Shown here: positions 2,983 to 51,620 of the stretch, piece by piece
How positions within the stretch are numbered: the first letter of the stretch is position 1
Layout: the number at the start of each line of letters is the position of its first letter
Source: Escherichia phage vB_EcoM_VR25
DNA length: 64,000 nucleotides
Sequence record: NC_028925.1
Direction: 5' to 3' (one strand)
Program-made: the position numbers and the translations under genes
Notes under the pieces: model-generated
Databases searched by the model: none
What the model was told of the DNA's origin: nothing
The model's input: the letters and a program-made list of their open reading frames with translations, nothing else

Positions 2983-4815
2983 TTATAGCGTCGCATTCAT
3001 CCAATCTTTGCGCAGCTTCGGTTCTTTACCGAAAAGCATTTCGAACAGTTCTTTCCAGTTTTCAGGTAATTGAACAACTTCGAATACTGGTTCGAGCAAT
3101 ACTCGCTTGTACTCGGAATCTTCCAGAGAACCCAGCCCCTTGATATATCTGATGGTATGCTTTGGAAGTTTATCCTTAGCTTCTTCATAATCAGGGAGAG
3201 AATAGAACCATTCTTGTTTATCTTTGAGCTGTGCAATAATAACAGGAGTTTTCACAAAGCGAATACGTCCTTCATGGAACAGCTCCGGCCAGTTACTGAA
3301 AAATGCCAATAACGATGGATAGATACTACCGACGCCATCCACATCCGCATCTGTCATGATAGCGATATTTCGGTAATTCATATTCTCGGCTGGTTGTCCA
3401 ATCGTTAATCCAGTAATCGCACACACATCAAAGGCTTCTGCGTTTTTCATAACTTCAACAGCTTTCAGACCCCATGTGTTTTTGAACTTACCGCGCAACG
3501 GATATGCACCTTGTAATTCGCGGTCACGAACCTTGATGAATGGACCCGTTGCAGAATCACCTTCGGTCAGGAACAAAGTCGTTTCCAGCTTGTCATTGCC
3601 CCATTCGTTGGCCTTGATATGCTTTTGTACCTTAGCCTTTGAAGCTTTCTTATTCGCCTTAGTCTCTGCTGCTTTCTCTGCAGCCAATTTACGAGCCAAT
3701 GCAGCTTCCACAATCGGCATAATCAGCGATTCATTTTTCAGAATAGCTTGTGCGATTTTCTTAGCATCAATTTGGATATGATTTCGAATCTCGCCAGCAG
3801 GAGAAGTCAATCGCTCCTTGGTCTGGGAATCAAATCGCATATTGCTCATATCGCGGATGAACATAAGCATGGTGAGGCATTCTTTGACTCGTGCTTTAGT
3901 AACTTCGATACCTTTGTATTTGCGCTTAATTGCTGGTTGGAGGTGTTCACAGATATCATCCATAACACATTCAACGTGGTGCCCACCATTCTTTGTATGA
4001 ATGTTGTTGACATAAGTCAGCTGACGGAAGCCGTCTGGGCTGGTCGTGAAAGCCATTGATACTGTATCAGTTTCCTGGATAACAACTTCGGTACCGAATT
4101 GCTTGGAGAACTTCTTGAAGTTGCCATCAACCTTTTTACCATTAAAGGTGAACTGAATATCCGGATAAACAACCGCAAGAGTCTGCAGACGGTCCAATGT
4201 AATATCCAGATAAATCTGGGACAAACTATTTTCTTCGAAGTGACTAAAGTCCGGAACAAAGATAACAGTTGTGCCTTTACCCTTAGATTTCTTGGTAGAC
4301 CAACCTTTGTTTTCCATACCGTTGGAGCAGTTAACAGTAATTTCATTTGCACCATCAGCGGTAATCCCTGTAAACAATACAGAGAAAATATTGGTCAGAG
4401 AAGACCCGACGCCATTCATCCCGCCAGTTTTACGTTCAGCATCATCACCGAAGTTACCACCTGCTTTTGGAATAGTCCATGCTGCAACAGGGCCAGGGAT
4501 TTGTTCACCGTTTTGGTCTGTAACCATTGCTTGTGGAATACCACGGCCATTATCAGAAACCGAAATCTGATTATCTTTAATTTGGACATCAATTTTATTG
4601 GCAAATTTAAAACTGGTGCGAATTGCTTCATCAACAGAGTTATCGATAATTTCATCAATCAGTTTTACAATACCAGGAACATAGCTTACGGACTTATATT
4701 CACCAAACAAGAATCGCTCATGCGCTTCATTTGAACTGGAACCAATATACATCCCAGAACGTTTTTTGATATGCTCGACGTCCGAGAGTACTTTAATTTC
4801 ATTATTAATCATCAT
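2983..4815 (-). CDS. 39: DNA topoisomerase II large subunit, uninterrupted 610 aa (GyrB-like)
   Basis: GyrB-type ATPase and TOPRIM-like sequence; one continuous ORF, so no separate gene 60 as in T4; T2-type organisation. Confidence 0.9.
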   Translation of the reverse strand: MMINNEIKVLSDVEHIKKRSGMYIGSSSNEAHERFLFGEYKSVSYVPGIVKLIDEIIDNSVDEAIRTSFKFANKIDVQIKDNQISVSDNGRGIPQAMVTDQNGEQIPGPVAAWTIPKAGGNFGDDAERKTGGMNGVGSSLTNIFSVLFTGITADGANEITVNCSNGMENKGWSTKKSKGKGTTVIFVPDFSHFEENSLSQIYLDITLDRLQTLAVVYPDIQFTFNGKKVDGNFKKFSKQFGTEVVIQETDTVSMAFTTSPDGFRQLTYVNNIHTKNGGHHVECVMDDICEHLQPAIKRKYKGIEVTKARVKECLTMLMFIRDMSNMRFDSQTKERLTSPAGEIRNHIQIDAKKIAQAILKNESLIMPIVEAALARKLAAEKAAETKANKKASKAKVQKHIKANEWGNDKLETTLFLTEGDSATGPFIKVRDRELQGAYPLRGKFKNTWGLKAVEVMKNAEAFDVCAITGLTIGQPAENMNYRNIAIMTDADVDGVGSIYPSLLAFFSNWPELFHEGRIRFVKTPVIIAQLKDKQEWFYSLPDYEEAKDKLPKHTIRYIKGLGSLEDSEYKRVLLEPVFEVVQLPENWKELFEMLFGKEPKLRKDWMNATL

Positions 4816-4865
4816 CTTTCCTCTTGTGTATGGAGGTATTATAAGTCACATATTTTAAAGCAAAA

Positions 4866-4879
4866 AGGCCCGAAGGCCT
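4866..4879 (-). terminator. stem-loop aggcc-cgaa-ggcct with flanking A/T runs
   Basis: Inverted repeat immediately upstream of gene 39 on the plus map, i.e. downstream of the lipoprotein gene on the minus strand. Confidence 0.5.
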
Positions 4880-5139
4880 TATTCAAATCGAATGGTTGAA
4901 TTCTTGAACAACAATCCAGAACAAACAGTTCCTTTGACCTGTTTACCGGTCGGACCCACTGCTGTAAAACCAGTACGTTGGAAGTCATCTTCAGAACACC
5001 CAAACAAACTATAACCAGTGATTTGGATTTGCTCAAAACCATTGGCATTCAAAACCTTAGTAGCATTATCGGCGTCAGTGCACCCGACCAGAGAAACGGC
5101 AAGAACCAGTGCAGTAATAGAACGATTTACGTATTTCAT
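4879..5139 (-). CDS. putative lipoprotein, 86 aa
   Basis: N-terminal signal peptide ending in lipobox LVGC, with two further Cys in the mature part. Confidence 0.6.
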   Translation of the reverse strand: MKYVNRSITALVLAVSLVGCTDADNATKVLNANGFEQIQITGYSLFGCSEDDFQRTGFTAVGPTGKQVKGTVCSGLLFKNSTIRFE

Positions 5140-6478: not shown

Positions 6479-6555
6479 AATTTTCTCTCTTGGTTAATAA
6501 GTTTATTCTCCAGTGGGACCATTATACTCTGGCCCCAAGAGTTTGTACACTAAAC

Positions 6556-7568: not shown

Positions 7569-7597
7569 TTTGTTTTCCTCATCAGTAGTTGATGAGA

Positions 7598-7631
7598 TGA
7601 TTATGTCTCTTTCCATTGGCCTTGTACACTA
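7598..7631 (-). promoter_or_regulatory. early-type promoter (-35 GTGTACA, about 17 nt spacer, -10 CATAAT) with conserved leader
   Basis: Hexamers read on the minus strand; followed by the repeated ATCTCATCAACTACTGATGAGGA leader and an ATG. Confidence 0.5.
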
Positions 7632-10916: not shown

Positions 10917-10963
10917 GATATTTTTCTCATCTTACGGACGATTAAATAACTCAGTATGGAATC

Positions 10964-10992
10964 ATTATACACTATTCATCTTTTATGTACAC
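10964..10992 (-). promoter_or_regulatory. early-type promoter (-35 GTGTACA, -10 TGTATAATG) with conserved CCATACTGAGTTA leader
   Basis: Read from sequence; nearly identical cassettes recur at about 20226, 47122 and 47720. Confidence 0.5.
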
Positions 10993-11666: not shown

Positions 11667-11694
11667 TTTATTATCCTCATCAGTAGTTGATAAA

Positions 11695-11728
11695 AACATC
11701 TTAACGTGTCTTATTGTTCTTGTACACA
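11695..11728 (-). promoter_or_regulatory. early-type promoter (-35 GTGTACA) with CAACTACTGATGAGGA leader
   Basis: Read from the minus strand upstream of the 11052-11666 start. Confidence 0.45.
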
Positions 11729-12271: not shown

Positions 12272-12327
12272 AATGGCCTCTCTGTTGTAAGAAAGGCCAT
12301 TATGTCATTAGGAGGGGAGTAAGTAAA

Positions 12328-12564
12328 CTACTTAAATACTCCAAGTGGGACGCCGAAGATAGCGATGTCTGCGGCCATGCCAATTGGGGATTGGCATGAT
12401 GAGTAAGAACTTTTCGATTCTGTCGGGCGTTTGGCTTTAATTGTCTCGGATTCAATCTTAAGCCTTTGCACACGATTAATTTTTTGTTGCTCGATTTCCT
12501 TATGAGCGTGTTTACGGTCGATATCCTGCGCCGATGTGGGGATATTTGTTAACCAGTTCATCAT
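12328..12564 (-). CDS. hypothetical protein, about 78 aa, hydrophobic C-terminus
   Basis: Start placed at the ATGA overlap with an upstream small ORF. Confidence 0.45.
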   Translation of the reverse strand: MMNWLTNIPTSAQDIDRKHAHKEIEQQKINRVQRLKIESETIKAKRPTESKSSYSSCQSPIGMAADIAIFGVPLGVFK

Positions 12565-13901: not shown

Positions 13902-14115
13902 AGGAAACCTCGTTTAAATTCAACTTTACCATCATCACAACGGATTTCAATATTGAACAACGGATTTCAATATTGAATTCTAAAGAATCATCATCGTGCA
14001 TCATGAATGAATGTACGATAACCTCATCAAACACACCCAGGCCATACTTAAAATGGACATCATGAGCAATAATTTCATCTAAAGCTTTGTTTGGTTTAAT
14101 CCAACGGTTTAACAT
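13894..14115 (-). CDS. hypothetical protein, 73 aa, C-terminus altered by a 20-bp tandem duplication
   Basis: Direct repeat at 13938-13977 shifts the frame; the single-copy frame would end in a TGA overlapping the next ATG. Confidence 0.4.
   Translation of the reverse strand: MLNRWIKPNKALDEIIAHDVHFKYGLGVFDEVIVHSFMMHDDDSLEFNIEIRCSILKSVVMMVKLNLNEVSYD
13938..13977. repeat. perfect 20-bp direct tandem duplication (caacggatttcaatattgaa x2)
   Basis: Two adjacent identical 20-mers read directly from sequence, inside ORF 13894-14115. Confidence 0.9.
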
Positions 14116-14169
14116 AGTATTCTCCTCTGTAATTGAAATAATTATACCATCTCTATTAAAAGCAAAAAA

Positions 14170-14187
14170 GGGAACCCGAAGGTTCCC
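14170..14187 (-). terminator. stem-loop gggaacc-cgaa-ggttccc with T-run on the minus strand
   Basis: Inverted repeat with UUCG-type loop and flanking A/T runs, downstream of soc. Confidence 0.55.
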
Positions 14188-14192
14188 TTTAA

Positions 14193-18624: not shown

Positions 18625-18645
18625 TTGAATCTCCTTAGTAGTTGA

Positions 18646-18682
18646 TGGGATAATATTAAATCATTATTATCCCGTTGTACAC
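18646..18682 (-). promoter_or_regulatory. early-type promoter (-35 GTGTACA) with ATCCCATCAACTACT leader upstream of sp
   Basis: Read from the minus strand; conserved leader and AGGAG before the ATG. Confidence 0.45.
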
Positions 18683-19513: not shown

Positions 19514-19804
19514 TTAGATTTCCTCACAAAAGGCCCATTCAGCGTGATAAACTGTTGCGCCAGGGGTTGCATTCATTTGAACCAAGTCTACAGGTGAAAT
19601 CACACGATATAGCTTAGGTTCTCCTCCAATTGAACGTGCTGCACGTCCAGCATAAATCTTCGCCAAACCAATGTCTTCAGTAAAGAAAACACGATTTAGA
19701 TTTTTCTTACGACCAGTTTCTGACAGGACTCCAGTTTCTTCTGGAGGACAAAGCATGTTATTGATATTTGCCAGACTGCATGACCCATGATAGAAAGTTT
19801 TCAT
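19514..19804 (-). CDS. hypothetical protein, 96 aa, N-terminal FYHGS motif
   Basis: Not present between dmd and 41 in T4 as recalled; own promoter and leader cassette upstream. Confidence 0.5.
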   Translation of the reverse strand: MKTFYHGSCSLANINNMLCPPEETGVLSETGRKKNLNRVFFTEDIGLAKIYAGRAARSIGGEPKLYRVISPVDLVQMNATPGATVYHAEWAFCEEI

Positions 19805-19828
19805 TTTATTCTCCAGTAGTTGATAGGG

Positions 19829-19860
19829 TCATTATACTATAAAGAAAAAGGGGTGTACAC
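19829..19860 (-). promoter_or_regulatory. early-type promoter whose -35 GTGTACA sits in the loop of hairpin ggggtgtacacccc (PeSL-like)
   Basis: -10 TATAAT and -35 read on the minus strand; palindrome 19850-19864 overlaps the -35. Confidence 0.5.
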
Positions 19861-19872
19861 CCCTTTTATCAC

Positions 19873-20175
19873 TTATGCCAACTCATAATTGTGCATTGTC
19901 AGACAACGAATTTTTCCAGTAGTTGGGTGCATAACAGTCACACTAATTGTGTAATCATCACACACGTTAACAAAAGGTTCCGCGATAACAAATACTTCAC
20001 CGCCTGCCAACAGATACTCACGAAGGCTTGAGCGAACCGCTGAAGGGTGAACATCGCTTTTGAGCTTTATTAATTTACCGGTTTGAATGCCAGATGCGAT
20101 AAGAGCAGCACAGGTTTCATCACGGCGAGCGAATTGTCCAAAGTAGTAACGATTCATGTCGGTTTGATTAAACAT
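19873..20175 (-). CDS. hypothetical protein, 100 aa
   Basis: ORF bounded by a promoter/terminator cassette upstream and a hairpin downstream. Confidence 0.5.
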   Translation of the reverse strand: MFNQTDMNRYYFGQFARRDETCAALIASGIQTGKLIKLKSDVHPSAVRSSLREYLLAGGEVFVIAEPFVNVCDDYTISVTVMHPTTGKIRCLTMHNYELA

Positions 20176-20225
20176 ATGGTTTTCCTTTTTAGTGGGTTGG
20201 TTTATTGTGTAACTCAGTATGGAAT

Positions 20226-20257
20226 CATTATGCCCTAGTAGAATTCAGTTGTACACC
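20226..20257 (-). promoter_or_regulatory. early-type promoter (-35 GTGTACA, -10 CATAAT) with CCATACTGAGTTA leader
   Basis: Read from sequence; same cassette as at about 10964, 47122 and 47720. Confidence 0.5.
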
Positions 20258-20276
20258 CTTTTTAAAATAAAAAAAA

Positions 20277-20290
20277 GGACCCGAAGGTCC
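20277..20290 (-). terminator. stem-loop ggacc-cgaa-ggtcc followed by T8 on the minus strand
   Basis: Perfect inverted repeat with UUCG loop and an 8-nt T-run; downstream of gene 41. Confidence 0.65.
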
Positions 20291-20293
20291 TTG

Positions 20294-21733
20294 TTAGAAT
20301 TTCATCTGCGCCGCAAGGTCGTCCAGGTCGCTCCTGTTGACCCTGGTTTGTCTATTCATTTCAGCCTGACGATTCATCTCACCAGTGGCTTCTTTCACCG
20401 TAGGGCCTTGTTTAGGAGTTGAATCATCATCAACCTCATACCAGCGCTGATTACCTTTCTTAACACCCATTTTGAATTTATTATAGTAGTTCTTATCACC
20501 ATAACGAGACTTAAGCTGTTTGATTAACTGCAGTCCCATTTGAGCGAATTCTTCGGTCTCAACAACACCCAACATAAAGTCGGCCGTGTGAGCAATACCA
20601 AAGGATTCTGCGATGTCAGCCATGTCAATCTCGGCTGCAACGTTCGCGCCCCTTGTTGTCTGTGCTGCAGTCCACAGGACCACATTTTTCTCGACCGCCA
20701 GACCACGAAGTTCTTCTGCAACCATCTTAATCAGACCGTAACTATTCTCGGTAAACGTTTTCAGTCTTGAGCTTGCACAAATTGCCAGGTAGTCAACAAT
20801 AATCACATCCGGCACAAATCCTTGCTTCAGTTTGTACTCGTTCAGTAATGCACGGAAGGTATCCGCATGCGCGCCCCCAGTTGGATATTGTTTTATCTTC
20901 AGAGTCCCGAGAGTCCCGGAAGCACGCCATTTTTCCATCTTACTTTTGTATTCTGCCCATGATATATGTCCTTCATCAATATCATCCAGAGATACATCAA
21001 GCAAGTTGGCATCAATACGTTTGGCACATACTTCTTCAGCCATTTCCATGCTTATATAAAGAACATTATGACCAGTCTGAAGATAGTCAGCGGCTAACGA
21101 ACAAAGTCCCAGAGATTTGCCGACGTTTGTTCCGGCCAGTAAAACGTTCTCTGTACCATACTCAACTCCACCCTTCGTGATTTTATTCAGGATGTTAATA
21201 CGGAACGGAACTTTCTTCGATTTGTTTAGATAAGTCTGGAATCGAGCTTCGTAATCGTTTAACCAGTCATGACCCAGAGCAGAGTCAAAACAGATAGACA
21301 ATGCATCGCGCATGATGTCAGGGATAGCACCAATATCCGGGATTCGTTTATCACGTTTATCTTTCGGAAGTTCGGCATTACTCTGAATTTCGATAATCCT
21401 GGATGTTGCATTGAACATCGCAGACTTCTGTACATACTTCTCGGTTTCTTTAACCAGCCATTCCTGGTCTTCTGGGGTATCAGCCAGGACTCCTAAGAGT
21501 TTCTTTGTGCCTTCATATTCAACTTCAGAAAGGTCAGAACCGTCGAGCGCGATATCAAGTGCAGTCTTAGTTGGAACTGCTTGATATTCTTTTACATGTT
21601 CGTTAATCGTATTGAAAAGGGTCTTCGCAGGACCCTTTTCAAAATATGTATTATTCAGATATGGCCAGACTTTAACAAAATATTCCTTGTTAAAGAGTAG
21701 CTGGGATAAAATAGTTTCTACCACTTCCACCAC
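20294..21733 (-). CDS. 41: replicative DNA helicase gp41 (DnaB family), 479 aa
   Basis: Walker A GTNVGKS and DnaB-like motifs; position between dmd side and gene 40. Confidence 0.9.
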   Translation of the reverse strand: MVEVVETILSQLLFNKEYFVKVWPYLNNTYFEKGPAKTLFNTINEHVKEYQAVPTKTALDIALDGSDLSEVEYEGTKKLLGVLADTPEDQEWLVKETEKYVQKSAMFNATSRIIEIQSNAELPKDKRDKRIPDIGAIPDIMRDALSICFDSALGHDWLNDYEARFQTYLNKSKKVPFRINILNKITKGGVEYGTENVLLAGTNVGKSLGLCSLAADYLQTGHNVLYISMEMAEEVCAKRIDANLLDVSLDDIDEGHISWAEYKSKMEKWRASGTLGTLKIKQYPTGGAHADTFRALLNEYKLKQGFVPDVIIVDYLAICASSRLKTFTENSYGLIKMVAEELRGLAVEKNVVLWTAAQTTRGANVAAEIDMADIAESFGIAHTADFMLGVVETEEFAQMGLQLIKQLKSRYGDKNYYNKFKMGVKKGNQRWYEVDDDSTPKQGPTVKEATGEMNRQAEMNRQTRVNRSDLDDLAAQMKF

Positions 21734-24315: not shown

Positions 24316-24370
24316 ATCCTCATTTAGTTGATGAAAGAATAATACGGCAATCCATTGCCGTTGTAAACAC

Positions 24371-30761: not shown

Positions 30762-32430
30762 CTTTTTTCATCTGGAGATGTTGCCCGTATGCTTCCGGGT
30801 CATGGTCTCGGTGACTGATAATAAAGATGTTGGTGTCTTCCAATTTGTTCAGGATGGTAGCAATTGCTTTAACACCCTCTACATCAGTAGCTGAATCGAA
30901 AACTTCGTCCAGAATCAATGTGTTGATATTGACACCAGATACTTTTGCAGCAATATCACGCCATGTAAACAGCAATGCAATATCGATACGAGCTTTTTCA
31001 CCCTGGCTAAATGATGCATAGCTAAAGTCTTCACGCCCACGAGATTTAATCGTTTCGTTGAATTCTTCATCAAGCGTAAAACTATAATCAGCTTCCATAA
31101 CTTTCAGATAAGCATTAATTTGCTTATTAAAGATAGGAATATATTTCTTAATAATCGCGCCTTTGATTCCAGAATCTTTCAACATATCCGTTAAGATACC
31201 ACGTTGATATTTTTCCATAACAAGGTTTGATTTCTGTTTGACTATTTTATCAAGCTGGTCTTGAAGCGTTTTAATATCATCGGCATGGTCAATGAATTCA
31301 GACTTAGCTTGCTCAATTAACGTCTTAACCTTTTTAGCTTTATCCACAGTCTGGATTAATGTTTGTTTCTTAGTTTGAATCTCTTGAGCTATTGTACGTT
31401 GGTTTTGTCTTGCTTCAGCGTACGCATCAAATCGCTCCTGAATGGAGGCCTGGAGAGCTTTATGGCTATCAGACTCACGATTATACTCTTCAATCTTTGT
31501 CTCAATTCTGGGGACTATGGAGTCTCCTGGCGACAATTGACTCAAACACGTTTGGCAACAACCGCCTTTCTCGTACAAACCGATTACCTTACGGAAGCTA
31601 TCGATTTTCGATTTAATCAGGAACGATTCTTGCTTGACTTTCGTCAGTTCCTGTTCAGGGTCTTCGCCCAAAATAATCTCGGTCAATCTTGTCGTTGCTT
31701 CATCAATCGTTGATTTGATATCACGTGCTTCTGAAGCCAAATCATCATACATCGTTTGCAACCGCAGCAGATTATCACCTGATAATTTTTTCTGCTTTTC
31801 AACGTTGTCCTGGTAGATTTTAATCTGTTGCACAACACCATCATGCTGAACATCAATCACCTGGATTTGGCTATTGACTTCGCGGATAAGAGATTTGTTC
31901 AGCTTATCCATATCGGCCAGTACAGAAACCTCTAACAGGTCTTCGACAAGTTTTCTTCTTGCAGGAGTGGATAGGCCCATGAAAGGGGTATATCCAGCTG
32001 TGCCGAGTACGACAATCTGTTTGAAACTGGCGTATGACATTCCGATAAGCTGTTCAAATTCTGCTTGGAAGTCTTTACTGCTGGCAGATTCATCAAGACG
32101 TTCACCGCCACAAGAGATTTCAAAAACATTGGGTTTTTGCCCACGTTTGATATAGTATTCTTTTCCATCATATTCCATCCACAATTCAACGAGCATATCT
32201 TTTTTGTTGCTCGAGTTAATCAACTGCCCTTTCTTAACATCACGAAAAGGCTTACCAAACAATGCAAATGTAACGGCTTCAAGGAAGGTTGATTTACCTG
32301 CACCGTTCTTACCGGTCACCAGAGTTTTCTGGACCTTATCGAGTTGAACCGTAATTGCTTGCGCTCCAACTGACATGATATTTTTATAGATAACTTTCTT
32401 TAGCTTAAAAGTCTTCATCGTAATAAGCAT
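30736..32430 (-). CDS. 46: recombination nuclease subunit gp46 (Rad50/SbcC-like ATPase), 564 aa
   Basis: Walker A GKNGAGKST, long coiled coil and C-terminal ABC signature. Confidence 0.9.
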   Translation of the reverse strand: MLITMKTFKLKKVIYKNIMSVGAQAITVQLDKVQKTLVTGKNGAGKSTFLEAVTFALFGKPFRDVKKGQLINSSNKKDMLVELWMEYDGKEYYIKRGQKPNVFEISCGGERLDESASSKDFQAEFEQLIGMSYASFKQIVVLGTAGYTPFMGLSTPARRKLVEDLLEVSVLADMDKLNKSLIREVNSQIQVIDVQHDGVVQQIKIYQDNVEKQKKLSGDNLLRLQTMYDDLASEARDIKSTIDEATTRLTEIILGEDPEQELTKVKQESFLIKSKIDSFRKVIGLYEKGGCCQTCLSQLSPGDSIVPRIETKIEEYNRESDSHKALQASIQERFDAYAEARQNQRTIAQEIQTKKQTLIQTVDKAKKVKTLIEQAKSEFIDHADDIKTLQDQLDKIVKQKSNLVMEKYQRGILTDMLKDSGIKGAIIKKYIPIFNKQINAYLKVMEADYSFTLDEEFNETIKSRGREDFSYASFSQGEKARIDIALLFTWRDIAAKVSGVNINTLILDEVFDSATDVEGVKAIATILNKLEDTNIFIISHRDHDPEAYGQHLQMKKVGRFTVME

Positions 32431-32668: not shown

Positions 32669-33684
32669 GGTTGCACCTCAAGGTATAATTTGTTGGCCAA
32701 TGCTTTAAGAGCTTTTGATTCTTTTTCATTGGCATCAGGTAATGCATCGATATATTCTGCCATCATATCCGTTAAGCGTTTTATGTCTAGCTCTTCATCT
32801 GCATCTGTTGTGTCTACACTATTGTCAACCTTATTGACAATACGCAAGTCATGCACGCGCTTTTCTAATTCAGATTCAAACTTGGTCAGTTCTTTATCGA
32901 CTTTTTCTACAATAACACGGACTGATAAGTCTTTGAAGTCGTCGTAGTTAATAGTTTCGTTTGGATAGAAAATCTTCCGATGCCAGGTGGTTTCATTCGG
33001 AATAAATTTCATCTCTTCGGTTTCGGTATTAAATTCCCAGAACCCGCGAGGGTCGTTCTCATCGCCTGCTGTTAATGTCCATGGTGTACCGATGTACTTA
33101 ACGTTTGCAGCTTCTGAAATGGTATGGAAGTGTCCAGACCAAACTTGCTTGTACTTCTTAAGGAAATCAGGCTCAAGCCCGTGTGATTTCAATCCTTTAT
33201 AGAAATAAAACCCGGTTAATTCCCAGTGACCGATGCAATATTCAGCGCCAGAGGTTTTGATGTGGTCATGAATAGCTGTCGCGTTCTCATCACACATCCA
33301 TGGAATCATATCAATCTGACAGCCGTCAAAATCAACAGTTGTTGGCTTATCGTAGATTTTAACATGGTCATACTTATTCAGGAGTTCGGTGATAGCGTTA
33401 GGATGAATCTTATTCTTCAGATTCATGTCATGGTTCCCGATTATCGTGTGCAGAGTAATTCCTGCTTCACGAAGGAGTTCCATAATCTCGCGGCTGAATT
33501 CCATTGTCTTATGCGTTACGGCCTTACGGACATCAAAGATATCACCATATTGAATCCAGACTTTAATTCCATTCGCCTTAGAATATGCAATCGCCTGTAA
33601 AATACCATCGCGTTGAATGTTTTGAGCCCATGGGTCGTCAGCTTTGACACCCAAGTGCCAATCACCTAAATTTAAAATTTTCAT
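32665..33684 (-). CDS. 47: recombination nuclease subunit gp47 (Mre11/SbcD-like phosphoesterase), 339 aa
   Basis: N-terminal LGDWHLG and GNHD phosphoesterase motifs. Confidence 0.9.
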   Translation of the reverse strand: MKILNLGDWHLGVKADDPWAQNIQRDGILQAIAYSKANGIKVWIQYGDIFDVRKAVTHKTMEFSREIMELLREAGITLHTIIGNHDMNLKNKIHPNAITELLNKYDHVKIYDKPTTVDFDGCQIDMIPWMCDENATAIHDHIKTSGAEYCIGHWELTGFYFYKGLKSHGLEPDFLKKYKQVWSGHFHTISEAANVKYIGTPWTLTAGDENDPRGFWEFNTETEEMKFIPNETTWHRKIFYPNETINYDDFKDLSVRVIVEKVDKELTKFESELEKRVHDLRIVNKVDNSVDTTDADEELDIKRLTDMMAEYIDALPDANEKESKALKALANKLYLEVQP

Positions 33685-33734
33685 ATACTCTCCTCAGTTG
33701 GTTCATTTTATCATCCCGATTATAAAGCAAAAAA

Positions 33735-33751
33735 GGAAGCACTAGGCTTCC
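33735..33751 (-). terminator. stem-loop ggaagc-acta-ggcttcc with flanking A/T runs
   Basis: Inverted repeat read from sequence; overlaps the 3' end of a hand-called small ORF (about 33738-33912) that is not listed as a separate feature. Confidence 0.4.
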
Positions 33752-35591: not shown

Positions 35592-35857
35592 CAGTGCACC
35601 AATTGGGCAGCTTCTAAAACATCATCAAGCTTATCAAACTGGTCAACATAATCAATCCCACCAACTTCATCTTTGGCATACAACCAATACTGCTTGAATT
35701 CATATTCAATAATAAAGTGGTCGCCTTCAATCTGGAGGACACCAACATCATTAAATTGAACTGCATAACCCGTAAAGCGGATATCATTCAGGAGTTCTTC
35801 TTTCATAGTAATCATTTCCAGGTTTTTCTCATAATGAGAGAGTTTAATTTTAATCAT
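35591..35857 (-). CDS. hypothetical protein, 88 aa
   Basis: TAATG-coupled ORF. Confidence 0.45.
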   Translation of the reverse strand: MIKIKLSHYEKNLEMITMKEELLNDIRFTGYAVQFNDVGVLQIEGDHFIIEYEFKQYWLYAKDEVGGIDYVDQFDKLDDVLEAAQLVH

Positions 35858-36198
35858 TTCGCGCCCTTAACAATTTTCAGGTCAACAAAACCTTTCTTGC
35901 GTTGGGAATTCATGCGCTTGATGGCTTTGTCAGAAACTTCTTTGTTTTCACGTGGGAGCGGCAGACCAAACGCTACTACATCAAATTCATTCAGGATATA
36001 CTGGACAAGGCTTTCACGAATACGTGCTTTACCCATTGTCTGACCTTCTGCAATAATCAGTTTCTGTACATCGCCTTCCCATTGGTCCAGAATCTCAGGA
36101 GTAACGAAACCAGATTTCATCAGAGTGTTGACTTTAGCAAATGCGAAATTAGCGATGGTGTTAGTGATAGATGCAGTCATGATATATTCCTCAGTCAA
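35854..36198 (-). CDS. hypothetical protein, 114 aa
   Basis: ATGA-coupled ORF. Confidence 0.45.
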   Translation of the reverse strand: MTEEYIMTASITNTIANFAFAKVNTLMKSGFVTPEILDQWEGDVQKLIIAEGQTMGKARIRESLVQYILNEFDVVAFGLPLPRENKEVSDKAIKRMNSQRKKGFVDLKIVKGAK

Positions 36199-37314: not shown

Positions 37315-37344
37315 TTTGTTTTCCTCATCAGTAGTTGATGGGAT

Positions 37345-37377
37345 AATGATACATCATTCAAAGGGGCTTGTACACCC
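37345..37377 (-). promoter_or_regulatory. early-type promoter with -35 GTGTACA inside hairpin gggg-cttgtaca-cccc, plus conserved leader
   Basis: Read on the minus strand; leader CCCATCAACTACTGATGAGGA precedes the ATG at 37314. Confidence 0.45.
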
Positions 37378-37979: not shown

Positions 37980-38215
37980 TCTTTCACCTTCAGCATTTTT
38001 GCAATGGTATTATGAATAGCCTGGATTCTTTTGTTGAATTCAGAGCTTTCGAGGCCAGGATTAGTGCTTAACCAACCGATGATAACAAACAGCAAACCAA
38101 ACGGGATAGCCAGAATAAGCAGACAAACGATGAACAACACAAGCGTTATGTTTGCCAGAATATCTGCTGTAGCATTACGAAATTTATTCATATTTACCCT
38201 TAATTGATTAACCAA
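37976..38215 (-). CDS. small membrane protein, 79 aa
   Basis: Central hydrophobic segment LVLFIVCLLILAIPFGLLFVIIGWL. Confidence 0.45.
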   Translation of the reverse strand: MVNQLRVNMNKFRNATADILANITLVLFIVCLLILAIPFGLLFVIIGWLSTNPGLESSEFNKRIQAIHNTIAKMLKVKE

Positions 38216-38305
38216 GCATTGATAAACACTAAACTATACTGCGAATAAAATTCTGGACCAAAATGAAAAATCATATCATTTATAGTATCCATAATATAAT
38301 TCAAT

Positions 38306-38776
38306 TTAATCATGTTTCCACACCCCATCGGTATTTGACCAAAGTCGCTGATTATCCGACCCTCGCCATAGCTTTTTAGTCGGAAGATTTTTCTCATACT
38401 TCCCATCAATAATAACATCAACATATTTAATCATTTCTAGTTGTTTAATATCTTCAAACTTATATCCTGTCCACAGCCAAATGCTTTTATTGGGATAAAG
38501 ATTTTTAATAGTTTGAACCACAGAGTGAATAACATCTCGGTTATCGGGATAGAGAGGGTCTCCTCCAGTTATAGTTAATCCTTCTATATAATCATTATTC
38601 AAACATTCAATTAATTGTTCTAGTGTTTCACCAGTGAATGGAACGCCATTTCTAGCATTCCATGTTGATTTATTATAACACCCTTCGCATTTATGCAAAC
38701 AACCTGTAACGAAAAGAACGGTCCTGCACCCAGGACCATTAATAAAATCGCAAGGATAAATTCTATCATAATTCAT
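38306..38776 (-). CDS. nrdG: anaerobic ribonucleotide reductase activating protein NrdG (radical SAM), 156 aa
   Basis: CxxxCxxC cluster motif (CLHKCEGC); ATGA-coupled to nrdD. Confidence 0.9.
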   Translation of the reverse strand: MNYDRIYPCDFINGPGCRTVLFVTGCLHKCEGCYNKSTWNARNGVPFTGETLEQLIECLNNDYIEGLTITGGDPLYPDNRDVIHSVVQTIKNLYPNKSIWLWTGYKFEDIKQLEMIKYVDVIIDGKYEKNLPTKKLWRGSDNQRLWSNTDGVWKHD

Positions 38777-40590
38777 TGGTGTTTAACCCTATGCATGATT
38801 TCTTTATTTTTGCCGAGATTAAATCCGCGTTCGTTCGGGTTTCCAAGATAGCCGCATGTTCTTCTTATGGTGTTCATCTTTTTGGGGTCAGTTTCTCCAC
38901 AAATAGAACAAACAAATCCGTTTTCAGTAGGAGTCATTTCATGAGTACTTCCACATGTAAAACATTTATCCACTGGCATATTAACACCAAAATAATCTAA
39001 ATGCTGTGCAGCATAATCCCATACGGTCTCAAGACCTTTTAAATTGTTTTTCATGTCAGGTAATTCAACATAAGAAATGTGACCACCTGTCGCAATGAAA
39101 TGATATGGCGCTTCATGAGAAATCTTTTCAAACGGAGTAATATTTTTTTCTACTGAAACATGGAAACTGTTAGTGTACCATCCTTTATCGGTAACATCTT
39201 TTACACTTCCATATTTTTCTGTATCGAGTTTACAGAATCGATAACACAGGTTTTCAGCAGGAGTGGAGTACAGGCTAAAAGCGAATCCGGTTCTTTCAGT
39301 CCATTGTTTAAGACAAGCATTCATTTTAGTCAAAATTTCTTGTCCAATATCACGACCGACAAGAATATTCAATTCGTGAATACCAATGTATCCTAGGGAC
39401 ACTGAACTTCTACCGTTTTTAAATAACTCAATTATATCATCGTCGGGTTTAAGACGAACCCCGAATGCACCTTCTTGGTAAAGAATAGGGGCAACAGTCG
39501 CTTTAACTCCTTTTAAGGAATTAATTCTACACATCAAAGCTTCAAAACACAAATTCATTCGTTCATTGAATAATTCAACAAATTTCTGTTCATTGAATTG
39601 CGTTCCAATATAAGAATCTAATGCAATACGAGGAAGATTCAGTGTTACAACACCAAGATTATTACGTCCATCAAGAATTTCATTACCAGTCGAATCTTTC
39701 CATACGCTCAAGAAACTACGGCAACCCATTGGAGAAACAGGAACAGATGAGCCGGTGATAGCTTTATTGTTCTTAGCTGAAATAATATCAGGATACATCC
39801 TTTTGCTTGCACACTCTAGAGCAAGCTGCTTGATATCATAGTTCGGGTCGTCTTTATAAAGATTAACACCTTCTTCAACAAACATAACAAGCTTAGGGAA
39901 AATAGGAGTTATTCCATCACGACCAAGACCTTTAATACGATTTTTCAGAATTGCTTTCTGAATCATTCGTTCAGTCCAGTCAGTTCCCGTACCAAATGTA
40001 ATTGTCACAAAAGGGGTCTGTCCGTTTGAACTAAAGAGAGTGTTTACTTCATATTCATAAGCTTGGAATGCATCATATACATCTTTTTCTGTTTTAGATT
40101 GGGCATAATTCAACGCATCAGTGATTTGCCATTTTTCTGCATCCTCAATATGTTTTGCATAGGTGCGTTTAACATAAGGAGAAAATACTTTGTCTACATT
40201 AGCAAAAGTCGTTCCGCCATATTGGTGAGAAGCAACTTGTGCAGTAATTTGTGCCATAATTGCAGTAGCAACACCAATTGATTTAGGAGTTTCAATCTGT
40301 GCATTACCGAGCTTAAATCCGTTTTCAAGCATTCCTTTTAAATCTACTAAACAACAATTAGTAAATGGAAGAGCAGGGGAATAATCAATATCATGGAAAT
40401 GAATAATTCCGCTTTCATGTGCTTTCATAATAAAAGACGCGACCATATTTTTGGCAATGTGTTTAGATACAATACCAGCCATAAGGTCCCGTTGAGTTGG
40501 AAAAACACGAGAATCTTTATTAGCATTCTCGTTTAAAAGGTCTTTATTAGTTTTATGAATCAATCCTTCAATTTCTTTTTCAATTGTCAT
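38773..40590 (-). CDS. nrdD: anaerobic ribonucleoside-triphosphate reductase NrdD, 605 aa, uninterrupted
   Basis: Glycyl-radical C-terminal motif RTCGYLG and Zn-ribbon cysteines; one continuous ORF, no intron. Confidence 0.95.
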   Translation of the reverse strand: MTIEKEIEGLIHKTNKDLLNENANKDSRVFPTQRDLMAGIVSKHIAKNMVASFIMKAHESGIIHFHDIDYSPALPFTNCCLVDLKGMLENGFKLGNAQIETPKSIGVATAIMAQITAQVASHQYGGTTFANVDKVFSPYVKRTYAKHIEDAEKWQITDALNYAQSKTEKDVYDAFQAYEYEVNTLFSSNGQTPFVTITFGTGTDWTERMIQKAILKNRIKGLGRDGITPIFPKLVMFVEEGVNLYKDDPNYDIKQLALECASKRMYPDIISAKNNKAITGSSVPVSPMGCRSFLSVWKDSTGNEILDGRNNLGVVTLNLPRIALDSYIGTQFNEQKFVELFNERMNLCFEALMCRINSLKGVKATVAPILYQEGAFGVRLKPDDDIIELFKNGRSSVSLGYIGIHELNILVGRDIGQEILTKMNACLKQWTERTGFAFSLYSTPAENLCYRFCKLDTEKYGSVKDVTDKGWYTNSFHVSVEKNITPFEKISHEAPYHFIATGGHISYVELPDMKNNLKGLETVWDYAAQHLDYFGVNMPVDKCFTCGSTHEMTPTENGFVCSICGETDPKKMNTIRRTCGYLGNPNERGFNLGKNKEIMHRVKHQ

Positions 40591-41060
40591 TTTAAACTCT
40601 TTCTAAGCTGCTTCTTAAATGAAGCCATTAATTGTGTTTTGGTGTCCGATTCATTATAAGTCATACCGTTCAAAAGCATTTCCTGAATCATTTCTTCTTT
40701 CCCCCGGCGACCAAACTCTTTGGCTTTGTCTGTCACAAAATTGGGGTGAATATTGTTTTCGGTATAATCAGATTTCAGATAGACAAGCAAACTCTCTAAC
40801 CATTCCAGGTAGTCAACATCGCGACCTTTCAGACCCGAGCGGCTGAACTTATGCTTCATTTGTCCTTCTGTTCCATTGCACAGATTGCATAGTAACCCAC
40901 GAACCTTACCGGCTTTTGGCCCATTCAATTCGTGGTCATGGTCAAGATGGTTGGCCTGAACATCGGAGTCCAAATCACGGTGGCAAATTGGACACTTACC
41001 ATTTTGTGCATCATAAAGTTTTTGTTTTTCTTCTTTGTATAATTTTCCAGTCAACAACAT
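40587..41060 (-). CDS. 49: recombination endonuclease VII gp49, 157 aa
   Basis: Sequence matches T4 endo VII by recall (MLLTGKLYKEEKQK..., CPICHRDL ... HDHELNGPKAGKVRGLLCNLCN). Confidence 0.9.
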   Translation of the reverse strand: MLLTGKLYKEEKQKLYDAQNGKCPICHRDLDSDVQANHLDHDHELNGPKAGKVRGLLCNLCNGTEGQMKHKFSRSGLKGRDVDYLEWLESLLVYLKSDYTENNIHPNFVTDKAKEFGRRGKEEMIQEMLLNGMTYNESDTKTQLMASFKKQLRKSLK

Positions 41061-44432: not shown

Positions 44433-44490
44433 AGTGTTCTCCTCATAAAGTAGGAATTCATTATACTCCCTCCATCCTTGGAAGTAAACA

Positions 44491-46569: not shown

Positions 46570-47094
46570 TTATGCGAGAACCGTCTTTAAACGCTTTTCA
46601 AACTTCTGAAGGAGTACCTGGCGCTCTGCTCTTTGTTTGGTATAGGTTTCAATACGCTCTGAAGTGAGATTGTATTGTTCATTAACTGATTCCCGCATGA
46701 ATTCAGGAATCTCTTTACATGCTTTGATTTCATTGAACTTATCAAGCACTGCTTGTTGTTCAGCAATCAGACCATCATAATATTGGATATCTGATTTGAT
46801 GTTCTGTACATCAGATTCAGTAGGCATATTTTTCTTTGCTCTTGCCGCCTGGTACTCAGCATTAGTCTCTCTTGACCAGAACAAAGAGCGGTTTTTGTTA
46901 GTGTTTTTATACACATCAATAATACCAACTGAATCAACATTCACAATCCAGTTCCAGGCGTTTTTATAAGTTTGACCACCTGATACTGTAATCTCACCTG
47001 CACAAGCAACATCATTAAAGAACTTGCTTTGTGCTTCTGATTTAAAATTACCATTATTGTAATTAATCAGATTAAAGATTGATTTGGCTTCCAT
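46570..47094 (-). CDS. hypothetical protein, 174 aa
   Basis: Preceded by the promoter/leader cassette at about 47122-47153. Confidence 0.5.
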   Translation of the reverse strand: MEAKSIFNLINYNNGNFKSEAQSKFFNDVACAGEITVSGGQTYKNAWNWIVNVDSVGIIDVYKNTNKNRSLFWSRETNAEYQAARAKKNMPTESDVQNIKSDIQYYDGLIAEQQAVLDKFNEIKACKEIPEFMRESVNEQYNLTSERIETYTKQRAERQVLLQKFEKRLKTVLA

Positions 47095-47121
47095 TTTATT
47101 CTCCCGTTTGTTTGGTAACTC

Positions 47122-47153
47122 AGTATGGGAACATTATACGTCTATCCCATACT
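47122..47153 (-). promoter_or_regulatory. early-type promoter (-35 GTGTACA, -10 GTATAATG) with CCCATACTGAGTTACC leader
   Basis: Read from sequence; cassette copy. Confidence 0.5.
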
Positions 47154-47164
47154 GATGTACACAT

Positions 47165-47467
47165 TTAATTAAAAGTTCTTTCAGTATTTTCACCACTGAA
47201 CCAGGCGCTCTTAACGGCTTGTTGCGCGCGATGAATCTGTTCAGCCATATAAACACCAAGGGCCTCTGCTTTTCTTGTCCTGTGGGCTTCTGCGGCGACC
47301 ATTTGCAGCTTATCCATCATGATAAGAGCTTTACATTTCTCCTTCAGAGCATAACGTTTCTTCTCTTCTGGAGTTTTGACCATTCCTCTTAACTTGTGCA
47401 TTTTCAACTTAAAATGGTCAGCAGATTTAAGACATGCATCAATCATGTCAATTTCATACTTTTTCAT
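47165..47467 (-). CDS. hypothetical basic protein, 100 aa
   Basis: ORF between two promoter cassettes. Confidence 0.45.
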   Translation of the reverse strand: MKKYEIDMIDACLKSADHFKLKMHKLRGMVKTPEEKKRYALKEKCKALIMMDKLQMVAAEAHRTRKAEALGVYMAEQIHRAQQAVKSAWFSGENTERTFN

Positions 47468-47473
47468 AATTCC

Positions 47474-47680
47474 TCACTTGCGACGACGTTTTGGTAATGG
47501 TTTAGGGAAGAACATTGCTTTACCTGCAGGGGTCAAAGTCACACGCAAAGCATTACCAATACCAAGGGATGCTTTAACCAGACCTTTGGCTTTTAACTCG
47601 CCAAATGCTTGACGTTGTTCAGGGTCGCGAGTGTTAACCATCAGACCTTTTTCACCAGCAGCTTTGATTAATTCTAACAT
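47474..47680 (-). CDS. hypothetical basic protein, 68 aa
   Basis: GGAG Shine-Dalgarno after the conserved leader. Confidence 0.45.
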   Translation of the reverse strand: MLELIKAAGEKGLMVNTRDPEQRQAFGELKAKGLVKASLGIGNALRVTLTPAGKAMFFPKPLPKRRRK

Positions 47681-47719
47681 TTTATTCTCCAGTTTTTATT
47701 TGGTAACTCAGTATGGAAT

Positions 47720-47751
47720 CATTATGTCTCATGACCATCTGGTTGTACACT
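47720..47751 (-). promoter_or_regulatory. early-type promoter (-35 GTGTACA, -10 CATAAT) with CCATACTGAGTTACC leader
   Basis: Read from sequence; cassette copy. Confidence 0.5.
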
Positions 47752-47769
47752 ACTTTTTAAAATAAAAAA

Positions 47770-47785
47770 GGACCCCGAAGGGTCC
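47770..47785 (-). terminator. stem-loop ggaccc-cgaa-gggtcc followed by a T-run on the minus strand
   Basis: Perfect inverted repeat with UUCG loop; same module as at 20277. Confidence 0.65.
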
Positions 47786-47791
47786 TTTGTA

Positions 47792-48076
47792 TTATTTCTT
47801 ACAACCAACATATTTTGGCATATGACAGAAAACAGAATCGGTAACTACTCGACCCTTTGCCCATGCTTCCTGTGCTTTACCGTGAGTAGTATTCACATAG
47901 CTGGATTTAATATTCTCGATACCTTGAGAATGTGATGCGTGTGCAGAACCATTAGAAGGACCTGCTGACTGACTTGAACCTTGACCGCCTGGGCCTGATG
48001 TGCCTTCAGTAGCCAGTACACCAAAAGACATAACAGCGGCCAACAGGCCTATAGCCACTTTTAATTTTAATTTCAT
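47792..48076 (-). CDS. secreted Gly/Ser-rich protein, 94 aa
   Basis: Signal peptide MKLKLKVAIGLLAAVMSFGVLA; C-terminal Cys pair. Confidence 0.5.
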   Translation of the reverse strand: MKLKLKVAIGLLAAVMSFGVLATEGTSGPGGQGSSQSAGPSNGSAHASHSQGIENIKSSYVNTTHGKAQEAWAKGRVVTDSVFCHMPKYVGCKK

Positions 48077-48139
48077 ATTTTCACCTTTTATTAACTCAAC
48101 ATTGAGTATGTTTACTATACTACAAAATCATTGAAGCAC

Positions 48140-48328
48140 TTAAATTGCACTCCAAAAATTATGGAATCTGATATCATCGATAGCCCAGTTAGCAAACTCG
48201 CGGGTTTGCTTGGGAGTTGGTTTACATATGTACTTATTGTTGATTCGTCTGCCAGTTTCCCGACAGACTGCTTCGAGATACCACCGCCGACCTTTATTGG
48301 GTCTTCCATATGATAAGAAGACCTTCAT
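48140..48328 (-). CDS. small basic protein, about 62 aa, downstream of the NTase gene
   Basis: Internal ATG 7 nt after the NTase stop; sequence GRPNKGRRWY... Confidence 0.4.
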   Translation of the reverse strand: MKVFLSYGRPNKGRRWYLEAVCRETGRRINNKYICKPTPKQTREFANWAIDDIRFHNFWSAI

Positions 48329-48335
48329 TTCTTCA

Positions 48336-49346: not shown

Positions 49347-49795
49347 TTCTTCGCCTCAAAATGGATTACTGGACATACCTTAGATTTACGAGCTTTAATG
49401 TATTGGACGACAAGGTTTTCTTTAATTTCCTTTCCTTCGCGTTTGGCTTTAATACGTTCCCATTCTTTTTCTTCTTTACGTAAATCATACCAGGCCCAGA
49501 AACTCATTGTACAATACACAACGCCAATGGCTACCGCCAGAATAAGAGCCAGTGTAGCCAGTCCTAAAATAAACCCTAACCCTAAACCAACAGGAGTACT
49601 TAATACAAAGAACTGTTCCAATACACCAGCCCCTGCAACAGTTAAGGCAAAGATTGTACTGCCTGCAAGCACAGAACAAATAAAGCAGACCCATACAATT
49701 TTCCAGAAGTAAGCACACAAAGAGTGTGGTCGAGAATAATGGCCATAAAAACGGTCGTGTAATTTAGTGTGCCAGGCATTTTCATTAATAATCAT
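49343..49795 (-). CDS. membrane protein, 150 aa (2-3 predicted TM helices, basic C-terminal tail)
   Basis: Long hydrophobic stretches IVWVCFICSVLAGSTIFALTVAG and LGFILGLATLALILAVAIGVV. Confidence 0.55.
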   Translation of the reverse strand: MIINENAWHTKLHDRFYGHYSRPHSLCAYFWKIVWVCFICSVLAGSTIFALTVAGAGVLEQFFVLSTPVGLGLGFILGLATLALILAVAIGVVYCTMSFWAWYDLRKEEKEWERIKAKREGKEIKENLVVQYIKARKSKVCPVIHFEAKK

Positions 49796-51561: not shown

Positions 51562-51586
51562 TGTATTCTCCTCAGTAGTTGATGGG

Positions 51587-51620
51587 ATAATAGTACACCC
51601 TTTTGATGAGGATGTAAACC
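51587..51620 (-). promoter_or_regulatory. early-type promoter (-35 GTTTACA, -10 TACTAT) with CCCATCAACTACTGAGGAG leader
   Basis: Read on the minus strand; probably heads the operon running to about 47790. Confidence 0.5.

Follow-up and report, generated by a model that had tools for sequence, protein, structure and literature searches.

Does the short stretch that follows gene 41 in Escherichia phage vB_EcoM_VR25 belong to a family of repeated regulatory cassettes, and do such cassettes mark small genes that have recently been acquired? The DNA analysed here is 64,000 nucleotides of sequence record NC_028925.1 (the window), and the stretch in question, at 20200-20293, carries a UUCG-loop hairpin with a T-run, a promoter and a leader. 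A sequence-only reading had likened this module to the promoter-early stem-loops (PeSLs) of T4-type phages. In the definition of Arbiol et al. (2010, PMC2839356) and of Comeau et al. (2014, PMC4122927), a PeSL consists of an early promoter, an AT-rich tract and a stem-loop or terminator, followed by a Shine-Dalgarno sequence (SD) and an ATG. PeSLs are known in RB49/phi1, T4/PST and KVP40/nt-1 and are said to be probably general (PMC2839356, PMC4122927). Our results make it likely that the modules of the window are sigma-70-dependent early promoters of Gaprivervirus, packaged as regulatory cassettes of the PeSL type. The cassette is not an unusual element, and it sometimes marks the gain or loss of a small gene.

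A 3-kb probe around the locus matched Escherichia phage vB_EcoM_VR7 (Gaprivervirus, Tevenvirinae) at 98.5% identity, and VR20, SP18 and ~25 other members of Gaprivervirus at 90-92%. The window is colinear with the rIIA to e.3 region of the VR7 annotation, has all of its genes on the minus strand and is the classic T4 early/middle region of a VR7-like, T4-type phage of this genus. It is a mosaic relative of VR7 rather than VR7 itself; it carries, for example, nrdD and nrdG, which VR7 lacks. These two genes lie at 38191-40591 in the window and are also found in VR20 and the TH phages; the corresponding ~2.4 kb are missing from VR7, where 55.8 runs almost directly into gene 49. Seven relatives were aligned to the window: VR7, VR20 (first 50 kb), TH40, TH55, TH22, TH57 and TH41. 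Breakpoints were taken as the ends of BLAST high-scoring segment pairs, and the breakpoint results are to be read for these seven relatives only, with approximate gene calls. Features described below lie on the minus strand unless stated otherwise.

Results

The promoters of the window are copies of a lineage-specific motif. With up to one mismatch, GTGTACA-N17-YATAATG was matched eight times in the window, always on the minus strand, where 0.07 matches were expected, and the proposal that sites of the GTGTACA-N17-TATAAT type recur was thereby borne out. A generic sigma-70 scan was dropped in favour of this motif: it returned 42 sites compared with 41 in shuffles and was uninformative because the DNA is AT-rich. 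An unbiased repeat search together with a loose motif scan gave 22 candidates on the minus strand versus five weak ones on the plus strand, and the 18 with an SD and an ATG downstream were kept. Alignment of these 18 sites on the -10 box produced the consensus AAaAa..GTgTACA-N-TATaAT-gaTccCAT, in which the A-tract, the -35, the -10 and 'TccCAT' reach 0.9-2.1 bits. The AAaAa directly 5' of the -35 contributes 0.5-0.8 bits, and the six bases past the -10 are about as informative as the two hexamers. Published traits of T4-like early promoters are C at -3 to -1 and a -35 of the GTTTAC type (PMC1524935). The ATG lies 26-51 nt past the -10 in all 18 cassettes. Genes with T4 orthologues stand behind 13 of the 18 promoters (motB, srd, modA, modB, sp, imm, 55.6, nrdC.4, nrdC.8, mobD.5, regB, ip10 and denV), and lineage-specific open reading frames (ORFs) behind the other five.

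At the gene 41 locus, 20200-20293 is exactly the space from the stop codon of gene 41 (20294-20296) to the end of a leader that we term leader A. Read along the minus strand, it comprises the hairpin GGACC-UUCG-GGUCC (20290-20277), eight T residues, ATTTTAAAAAGG, the -35 GTGTAC (20256-20251), an 18-nt spacer, the -10 CATAAT (20232-20227), GATT and the leader CCATACTGAGTTAC, past which a 100-codon ORF opens with its ATG at 20175. The predicted intrinsic terminator occupies 20269-20292 (AAGGACC-UUCG-GGUCCUU and T8, fold -10.7 kcal/mol), past the gene 41 stop. The putative promoter P20256 and its leader take up 20176-20268, with an A/T tract, the -35 at 20251-20256, the -10 at 20227-20232 and leader A at 20209-20224; the 5' untranslated region (5'UTR) extends to the ATG at 20173-20175, has its SD at ~20183-20186 and a leader that is unstructured from the presumed +1. 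The ORF itself, ORF045c (19873-20175, 100 amino acids, phrog_17014, function unknown), is the accessory gene of a cassette-bounded unit at 19869-20293. It is followed by the P19860 cassette of ORF044c (19802-19867), where the palindrome AAAAGGGGTGTACACCCCTTTT (19846-19867) includes the -35 and runs into a T-run (-12.3 kcal/mol, z -2.5); the -10 at 19831-19836, a leader B core at 19815-19824 and the RegB-type SD GGAGAATAAAA at 19804-19814 then lead to the ATG.

Comparison with the relatives reveals three states of this slot. The order gene 41 - terminator - P20256 - leader A - ORF045c - P19860 - ORF044c is common to the window, VR7 and VR20, and ORF045c is present in these and in TH41. The block 19869-20293, with terminator, promoter, leader and ORF045c, is missing as one piece from TH40, TH55, TH22 and TH57. 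These four phages have a single cassette that is like the upstream one in its A/T part and like the downstream one in its stem, -10 and leader, with the join at aaaaGGG/-35. TH41 carries one further unit, consisting of a terminator, a leader B promoter and an 82-amino-acid ORF whose stop codon TAG overlaps the -35 as taGTGTACA. TH41 also has a chimeric cassette, in which a promoter half that resembles a cassette of another locus (TH22 66788) is joined to leader A and ORF045c. By tblastn, ORF045c occurs in 20 records, in Gaprivervirus only and always at the same locus. The 82-amino-acid ORF is found in 13 of those 20 and has 57%-identical homologues at a similar map position in 71 Tequatrovirus records. 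In Morganella phage MP1 (Gualtarvirus), a cassette with a spacer identical to that of P20256 at 15 of 18 positions heads an unrelated gene. Under cassette-mediated exchange, crossovers between VR7-type and TH40-type phages would be expected to cluster in aaaaGGGGTGTACA.

Leader A (TyCCATACTGAGTTAy, up to two mismatches) has four copies in the window, all on the minus strand, at 10946-10961, 20209-20224, 47115-47130 and 47703-47718; chance predicts 0.41, and none of 100 shuffles reached four. Every copy stands 4 nt past a (C/T)ATAAT(G) -10, which is itself 17-18 nt past GTGTAC. These are the four sites at which a terminator-promoter-leader module had been read, and the promoter and leader hold at each of them, but the UUCG hairpin with a T-run exists only at 20277-20290 and 47767-47788. 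The module before nrdC.8 (47100-47160) is without an upstream terminator, and the P10992 cassette before srd (10917-10992; -35 at 10987-10992, 17-nt spacer, -10 at 10964-10969, leader A variant at 10946-10961) has neither a hairpin nor an upstream terminator. An inverted, partial fifth copy of leader A at 47145-47155 lies between the -35 box and the -10 box of the 47162 promoter and pairs with the leader in a stem of 11 bp.

The second leader, which the sequence-only reading placed after at least eight promoters, is in part confirmed. Its core, ATCAACTACT, lies downstream of the promoters at 7593, 11691, 18646, 19824, 37339, 51583 and 58898, and degenerate copies occur at ~55690 (regB) and ~24330 (imm), but the full 23-nt form has only three copies (up to three mismatches), the part in common being ~10-16 nt. 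The two families diverge only past the presumed start A (AUACUGAGUUAC versus AUCAACUACU), and because the 18 sites share one aligned consensus, both leader types belong to a single promoter class, as two sub-families of it. Among orthologous cassettes of eight genomes, pairwise identity was 0.97 for the -35, 0.98 for the -10, 0.96 for the leader core and 0.95 for the linker and SD, and 0.89 for the spacer and 0.88 for the 20 nt upstream; the A-rich linker past the core varies in length. Leader A is present in 10-13 copies per genome in ~30 Gaprivervirus records and in five copies in MP1, whose record annotates the sites as MEME-derived promoters, and in a Dhakavirus most early promoters have a variant of leader B (agaCCTATCAACTAa) behind them. 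When folded as RNA from the presumed +1, the leaders are unstructured and no better than shuffles (z above 0), and Rfam 15 gave no match in the whole window at the gathering threshold; on these two results, the leader as a structured RNA was rejected. A hairpin in leader B (CAUCA-ACUAC-UGAUG) was rejected as a general reason for its conservation, since only three or four copies have it, the SD coming directly next in all others.

There are nine UUCG-loop hairpins on the minus strand versus one weak example on the plus strand, and seven have T-rich tails. Three, at 20292, 47788 and 51659, immediately precede early promoters. Two have the form of Rho-independent terminators: 20277-20290, with a T8 tail past the gene 41 stop, and 47767-47788, with a T6 tail past the stop of a 94-amino-acid ORF. 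Other stems are placed over the -35 (19860, GGGGUGUACACCCC with a U-run, and 37375), between the boxes (24368) or after the -10 (7629). At 6550, 12328, 18682, 47162, 55730 and 61741 the stem crosses the -10, and its 3' arm is the start of the leader. Relative to control segments, stem strength was at or below the 1st percentile in six of 18 cassettes and at or below the 9th in nine.

Pairing of the spacer was evaluated across a non-redundant set of 49 promoters taken from Gaprivervirus, Dhakavirus and MP1. Spacers paired better with their own -10 and leader than with those of other promoters (mean -7.85 versus -5.33 kcal/mol), values of -10 kcal/mol or lower being reached by 35% of own and 8% of cross pairings, a difference matched in none of 2000 permutations. 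The stems differ widely in sequence (GGGATA/TATCCC, GGCTAT/ATAGCC, AGGGTA/TACCCT, GTGGGAC/GTCCCAC). This promoter-specific pairing by quite different sequences indicates that the hairpin across the -10 is selected as a structure. Only read-through RNA or single-stranded DNA allows such a hairpin to form, and in read-through RNA it buries the SD and AUG in four of the 18 cassettes (motB, modA, modB and regB). A separate set of terminator hairpins, at 4815-4880, 14115-14190, 33690-33745 and 48077-48114 (minus strand), has a T-run that merges into a MotA-box-like TGCTTTA, with TATAAT or TATAGT 11-13 nt further on. These composites of a terminator and a middle promoter are a 'PmSL' analogue, and several coincide with recurrent breakpoints (4863-4892, 14465 and 33679).

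Two leader A cassettes flank genes of the nrdC.8/nrdC.9 locus. The first, P47750 (47681-47790, before ORF098c/nrdC.9), opens with the predicted terminator AAAGGACCC-UUCG-GGGUCCUUU (47767-47788) and a T-run; it continues with a -35 at 47745-47750, a -10 at 47721-47726, leader A at 47703-47718 and GGAGAATAAAA at 47680-47690. Its breakpoints fall at 47787-47793 in five relatives and at 47750 in TH40. The second, P47162 (47095-47162, before nrdC.8), has its -35 at 47157-47162, -10 at 47133-47138, leader A at 47115-47130 and GGAGAATAAAA at 47094-47104; here the inverted repeat 47145-47155/47120-47130 encloses the -10, and the read-through fold reaches -20 kcal/mol (z -2.9). Between the nrdC.11 stop and the P47750 terminator lies a variable segment (47792-48336) with ORFs of 94 and 64 amino acids, which is absent in VR20, TH57 and TH41, half present in TH55 and TH22, and replaced in TH40 by a plus-strand collagen-like ORF joined exactly at the -35 GTGTACA of the resident promoter. 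The replacement in TH40 (~48724-49536, equivalent to window 47750-48136) is an insertion of ~0.8 kb, with Gly-Pro repeats in the ORF and its own terminator ahead. The 94-amino-acid ORF (47792-48076, minus strand; phrog_2243) has a signal-peptide-like N-terminus, MKLKLKVAIGLLAAVMSFGVLA, so its product is probably a secreted or periplasmic accessory protein. The variable ORFs as a set matched only PHROGs of unknown function, domains of unknown function and one internal head protein.

Three gene sets bounded by cassettes had been proposed as recent cargo, to be recognised by their presence or absence as units. Synteny with the seven relatives supports this for 19869-20293, where ORF045c (19873-20175) is present or absent together with its terminator, promoter and leader, but not for 46570-47094 (nrdC.8) and 47165-47680 (ORF098c plus nrdC.9), which are present in every relative examined. 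As nrdC.8 and nrdC.9 also have T4 orthologues, they were rejected as cargo; ORF098c is annotated as RB69-like. What varies at this locus is the segment 47792-48336, upstream of the cassette.

The alignments yielded 70 distinct breakpoint positions. Nine fall within the spans of the 18 cassettes (together 3.8% of the window), compared with 2.7 expected under a uniform null (p=0.0014). Crossovers at the -35 edge (18691, 19868, 47750, 61748), the terminator (20289, 47790) or the leader (58908, 20237) affect six of the 18 cassettes. Spacers of more than 30 nt were hit more often than tight junctions (20/41 versus 29/95, odds ratio 2.2, p=0.034); these long spacers carry some regulatory signal, including the composites of a terminator and a MotA box.

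Early mRNAs of T4 are cut by RegB/S1 at a consensus GGAGAAUAAAA (PMC1702504). The form that we tested was a single-stranded GGAG followed by an A-rich 7-mer (GGAGRAYARAA) in the translation initiation region (TIR) of early genes. Exact matches to GGAGAAUAAAA occur four times on the minus strand as GGAGAATAAAA (19814, 47104, 47690 and 63183), and several leaders end in GGAGAATAAAATG. The endoribonuclease gene regB, mapped from the VR7 annotation to 55215-55673, stands behind one of the early promoters, and its product would be expected to cut the GGAG-type SD sites of the leaders.

The remaining cassettes illustrate the range of stem-loop positions. Leader B follows the promoter of ORF013c (7569-7629), where the stem CAUCUCAUCA/UGAUGAGG is confined to read-through RNA (-15.4 kcal/mol, z -4.8); of modA (11667-11727), found by the repeat search and motif scan; of sp (18625-18682), where the inverted repeat GGGATAAT/ATTATCCC spans the -10 and 18691 is a recurrent breakpoint; of 55.6 (37315-37375), whose stem GGGGTGTACAAGCCCC overlaps the -35; of mobD.5 (51562-51659), preceded by a UUCG terminator (51632-51659); and of denV (58876-58934), where relatives have a different promoter half joined within leader B (breakpoint 58908). 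Degenerate leader B cassettes precede regB (55674-55730), with the -10 in the 5' arm of a hairpin and the SD and AUG in its 3' arm (55671-55730, -17.3 kcal/mol, z -5.6, versus 0.0 for the proximal RNA), and imm (24316-24368), with the stem ACGGCAAUGGAUUGCCGU between -35 and -10. The early promoter of modB (12272-12328) has a 15-bp hairpin from the -10 to the AUG (-23.5 kcal/mol, z -8.0), which is kept with changed bases in the Dhakavirus orthologue. Hairpins also span the -10 before motB (6479-6550) and before ORF134c (61685-61741, stem GTGGGAC/GTCCCAC), and VR7 has a 651-bp insertion that begins at the -35 edge (61748) of the latter. The promoters of nrdC.4 (44433-44489) and ip10 (58412-58470) were identified by the motif scan.

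Three further observations concern individual genes. At 57789-57817 (minus strand), an ip-like gene has its start codon directly against the -10 of a GTTTAC-N17-TATAAT promoter (TATAATGTTAAC); the equivalent site of TH41 is longer by 28 bases (TATCCCATCAACTACTGAGGAGAATAAA, i.e., leader B plus SD), which suggests that the window has lost a leader by deletion between ATAAT and ATAAA repeats and that the gene was left leaderless or silenced. Within the surrounding ip cluster (57752-58411), which is among the most rearranged segments in the relatives, three adjacent small genes open with the same 39-nt stretch (MKTYQEFI...), which we take to be the common N-terminal targeting sequence of internal head proteins. 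The coding region of mrh.2 contains an exact tandem duplication of 20 nt (ACAACGGATTTCAATATTGA twice) at 13937-13976.

Discussion

Taken as early promoters packaged in PeSL-type cassettes, the modules would each be read in the order optional terminator or promoter-overlapping stem-loop, A-rich UP-like tract, -35 GTGTACA, spacer of 17-18 nt, -10 TATAAT, TCCC-A start region, short unstructured 5'UTR of either family, SD (often GGAGAAUAAAA) and ATG. Host RNA polymerase would initiate at them right after infection, and the terminator or stem-loop would limit read-through from the upstream unit and, at ~4 of 18, hide the ribosome binding site in read-through RNA. RegB would later inactivate the mRNAs. 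To judge from the sequence and from knowledge of T4, the primary role of the module would be to start, insulate and later shut off early units. The likeness of 50-90 bp at many loci may, in addition, permit occasional crossovers by which promoter-plus-ORF units are gained, lost or re-headed. That cassettes are occasional crossover points is indicated by the chimeric cassettes and by ORF045c, which is present or absent as a unit; recombination in this sample favours cassettes no more than it does other gene junctions.

Several points weigh against this interpretation, chiefly against its recombination part. Thirteen of the 18 promoters simply head conserved T4-type early genes. The enrichment of motif copies at insertion boundaries that had been predicted is seen against the uniform null, but disappears against other gene junctions, as promoter junctions were hit in 6/18 cases and others in 43/118 (odds ratio 0.87, p=0.69). 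Among spacers of more than 30 nt, promoter junctions were hit less often (6/18 versus 14/26), so a breakpoint excess specific to early-promoter junctions was rejected, and only a modest excess for long spacers in general is left. Many indels rely instead on overlaps of 3-34 nt at tight SD/ATG junctions. The pattern of ORF045c would be explained by loss from an old variable slot as well as by gain, since the Tequatrovirus homologues of the 82-amino-acid ORF indicate that the slot is old and movement of ORF045c between loci was not seen, its locus being the same in all 20 records. Half of the cassettes have no hairpin above background, and sequestration of the ribosome binding site, at 4/18, was rejected as the general role of the stem-loops and kept as a property of a subset. 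Transcription initiation, termination, RegB cleavage and the mechanism of recombination are steps that we infer; what we observed are motifs that are conserved and biased to one strand, hairpins, chimeric cassettes and a unit that is present or absent as a whole.

The cassettes might instead be purely regulatory and have no special part in plasticity, indels being tolerated at any junction since only events that respect junctions survive selection. We consider this a real possibility, although not the more probable one. It would account for the 57 of 70 breakpoints that fall in gene-junction zones (18% of the window) without enrichment of promoter junctions, for the short overlaps that are common at tight junctions (e.g., 4877-4892, 32407-32417, 33674-33685 and 35853-35859) and for the predominance of conserved T4 early genes behind the promoters. 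However, the crossovers in the affected cassettes land on conserved blocks (the -35 edge, terminator or leader), chimeric cassettes do occur, as in TH41, and long spacers with regulatory signals were hit more than tight ones. An origin as ends of a self-mobilising element, moved like integron cassettes by a dedicated enzyme through site-specific or mini-circle exchange, is very improbable. PeSL mini-circles have been detected in RB49 and phi1 (PMC2839356), and the nested architectures of 0, 1 and 2 ORFs past gene 41 resemble serial cassette insertion, but no integrase or recombinase is associated with the cassettes, ORF045c keeps to one locus, and the crossover points vary between the -35 edge, the terminator and the -10/leader, as expected for homology-driven rather than site-specific exchange.

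A different question is why the leaders are conserved. They could be functional RNA or DNA signals, i.e., factor-binding sites or initial transcribed sequences tuned for promoter escape, that define two classes of early genes and are not mere copied ancestry. We regard this as rather doubtful. The core is conserved like the -10 and -35 among orthologues (0.96, versus 0.89 for the spacer), its register of 4 nt past the -10 is fixed in every copy, its length is constant where that of the A-rich linker varies, and it crosses genera, since Gualtarvirus MP1 has leader A and Dhakavirus a variant of leader B (CCTATCAACTA). Yet the leaders have no predicted structure or Rfam match, and the window contains no complementary partner for them; in about one-third of promoters, the leader begins with what is simply the 3' arm of a -10-spanning hairpin, which alone would constrain it; and gene conversion among copies could also maintain the likeness. 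It is also conceivable, if unlikely, that the promoter-specific, covarying hairpins around the -10 are more than attenuators and, with the fixed leaders, form a general device that senses the origin of a transcript, or that the inverted repeats are extruded as cruciforms and cut by a T4-type endonuclease VII. If so, each early gene would be fully readable only from its own promoter, with read-through RNA being folded, processed or silenced, and promoter-plus-ORF units would be autonomous, hence transplantable between genomes; cuts by endonuclease VII would seed recombination exactly at the cassettes.

The preferred reading, of early promoters packaged as PeSL-type cassettes, can be placed beside four known systems. 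Similarity to RegB/S1 sites of T4 early mRNAs (PMC1702504) rests on sequence: several cassettes have exact GGAGAAUAAAA as their SD, the genome includes regB and the leader is single-stranded, but many cassettes have other SDs (GAGGA, AAGGAG or AGGAAA). The hairpins that sequester TIRs in T4 (e, soc, 49 and I-TevI; PMC3014915) have counterparts at modB, regB, motB and modA, where the 5' arm lies upstream of the presumed start and therefore only read-through RNA can fold over the SD and AUG; the internal promoter, however, is late in T4 and early here, and only ~4/18 cassettes are concerned. T4-type early promoters as described by Nolan et al. (2006, PMC1524935) share the GT(T/G)TAC -35, the 17-nt spacing, the TATAAT -10, the upstream A-tract and the C-rich -3 to -1, and here too such promoters stand ahead of motB, srd, modA, modB, sp, imm, regB, denV and ip orthologues and some novel ORFs. 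They differ in that G is found at the third -35 position here and conservation runs 15-20 nt into the leader.

The closest match is with the PeSLs. As had been suggested, the anatomy fits the published definition (promoter, AT-rich tract, stem-loop or terminator, SD and ATG). The position of the stem-loop is similarly variable, and all five classes (upstream, over either box, between the two or after the -10) are represented here, although a stem at or below the 9th percentile of controls is limited to nine of the 18 cassettes; ~100 bp of similarity is repeated at many intergenic sites of the early region; and some copies adjoin differential ORFs, with crossovers in the AT-rich/-35 part. Differences are the -35, GTGTACA here versus TTGACA in RB49 and TTTACW in T4, the stems, which are not polyG/polyC, and the repeat itself, which here includes two discrete, conserved families of leader and an SD of the RegB type. 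The association with differential ORFs is also weaker, at ~4-5 of ~15 variable segments versus 10/14 in phi1/RB49, and not above the gene-junction background. No earlier description of these cassettes in VR7-type phages was found in the literature searched, nor were the two cross-genus leader families and the quantitative, covarying -10-spanning hairpins, which are modest additions. The hairpin covariation and leader families may aid annotation and phage engineering, as sites for payload genes with native early expression, and the existence of two conserved families raises the small question of leader function.

In summary, the PeSL reading is right in kind, and Gaprivervirus is a further lineage of an already described cassette type. 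A fourth T4-like lineage is thereby added to the PeSL picture, relatives being found in Dhakavirus and Gualtarvirus, and the slot past gene 41, with 0, 1 or 2 small ORFs that each have their own promoter, provides a clean three-state example. The published PeSL idea is also tempered, as the cassettes here are foremost ordinary early promoters of conserved genes.

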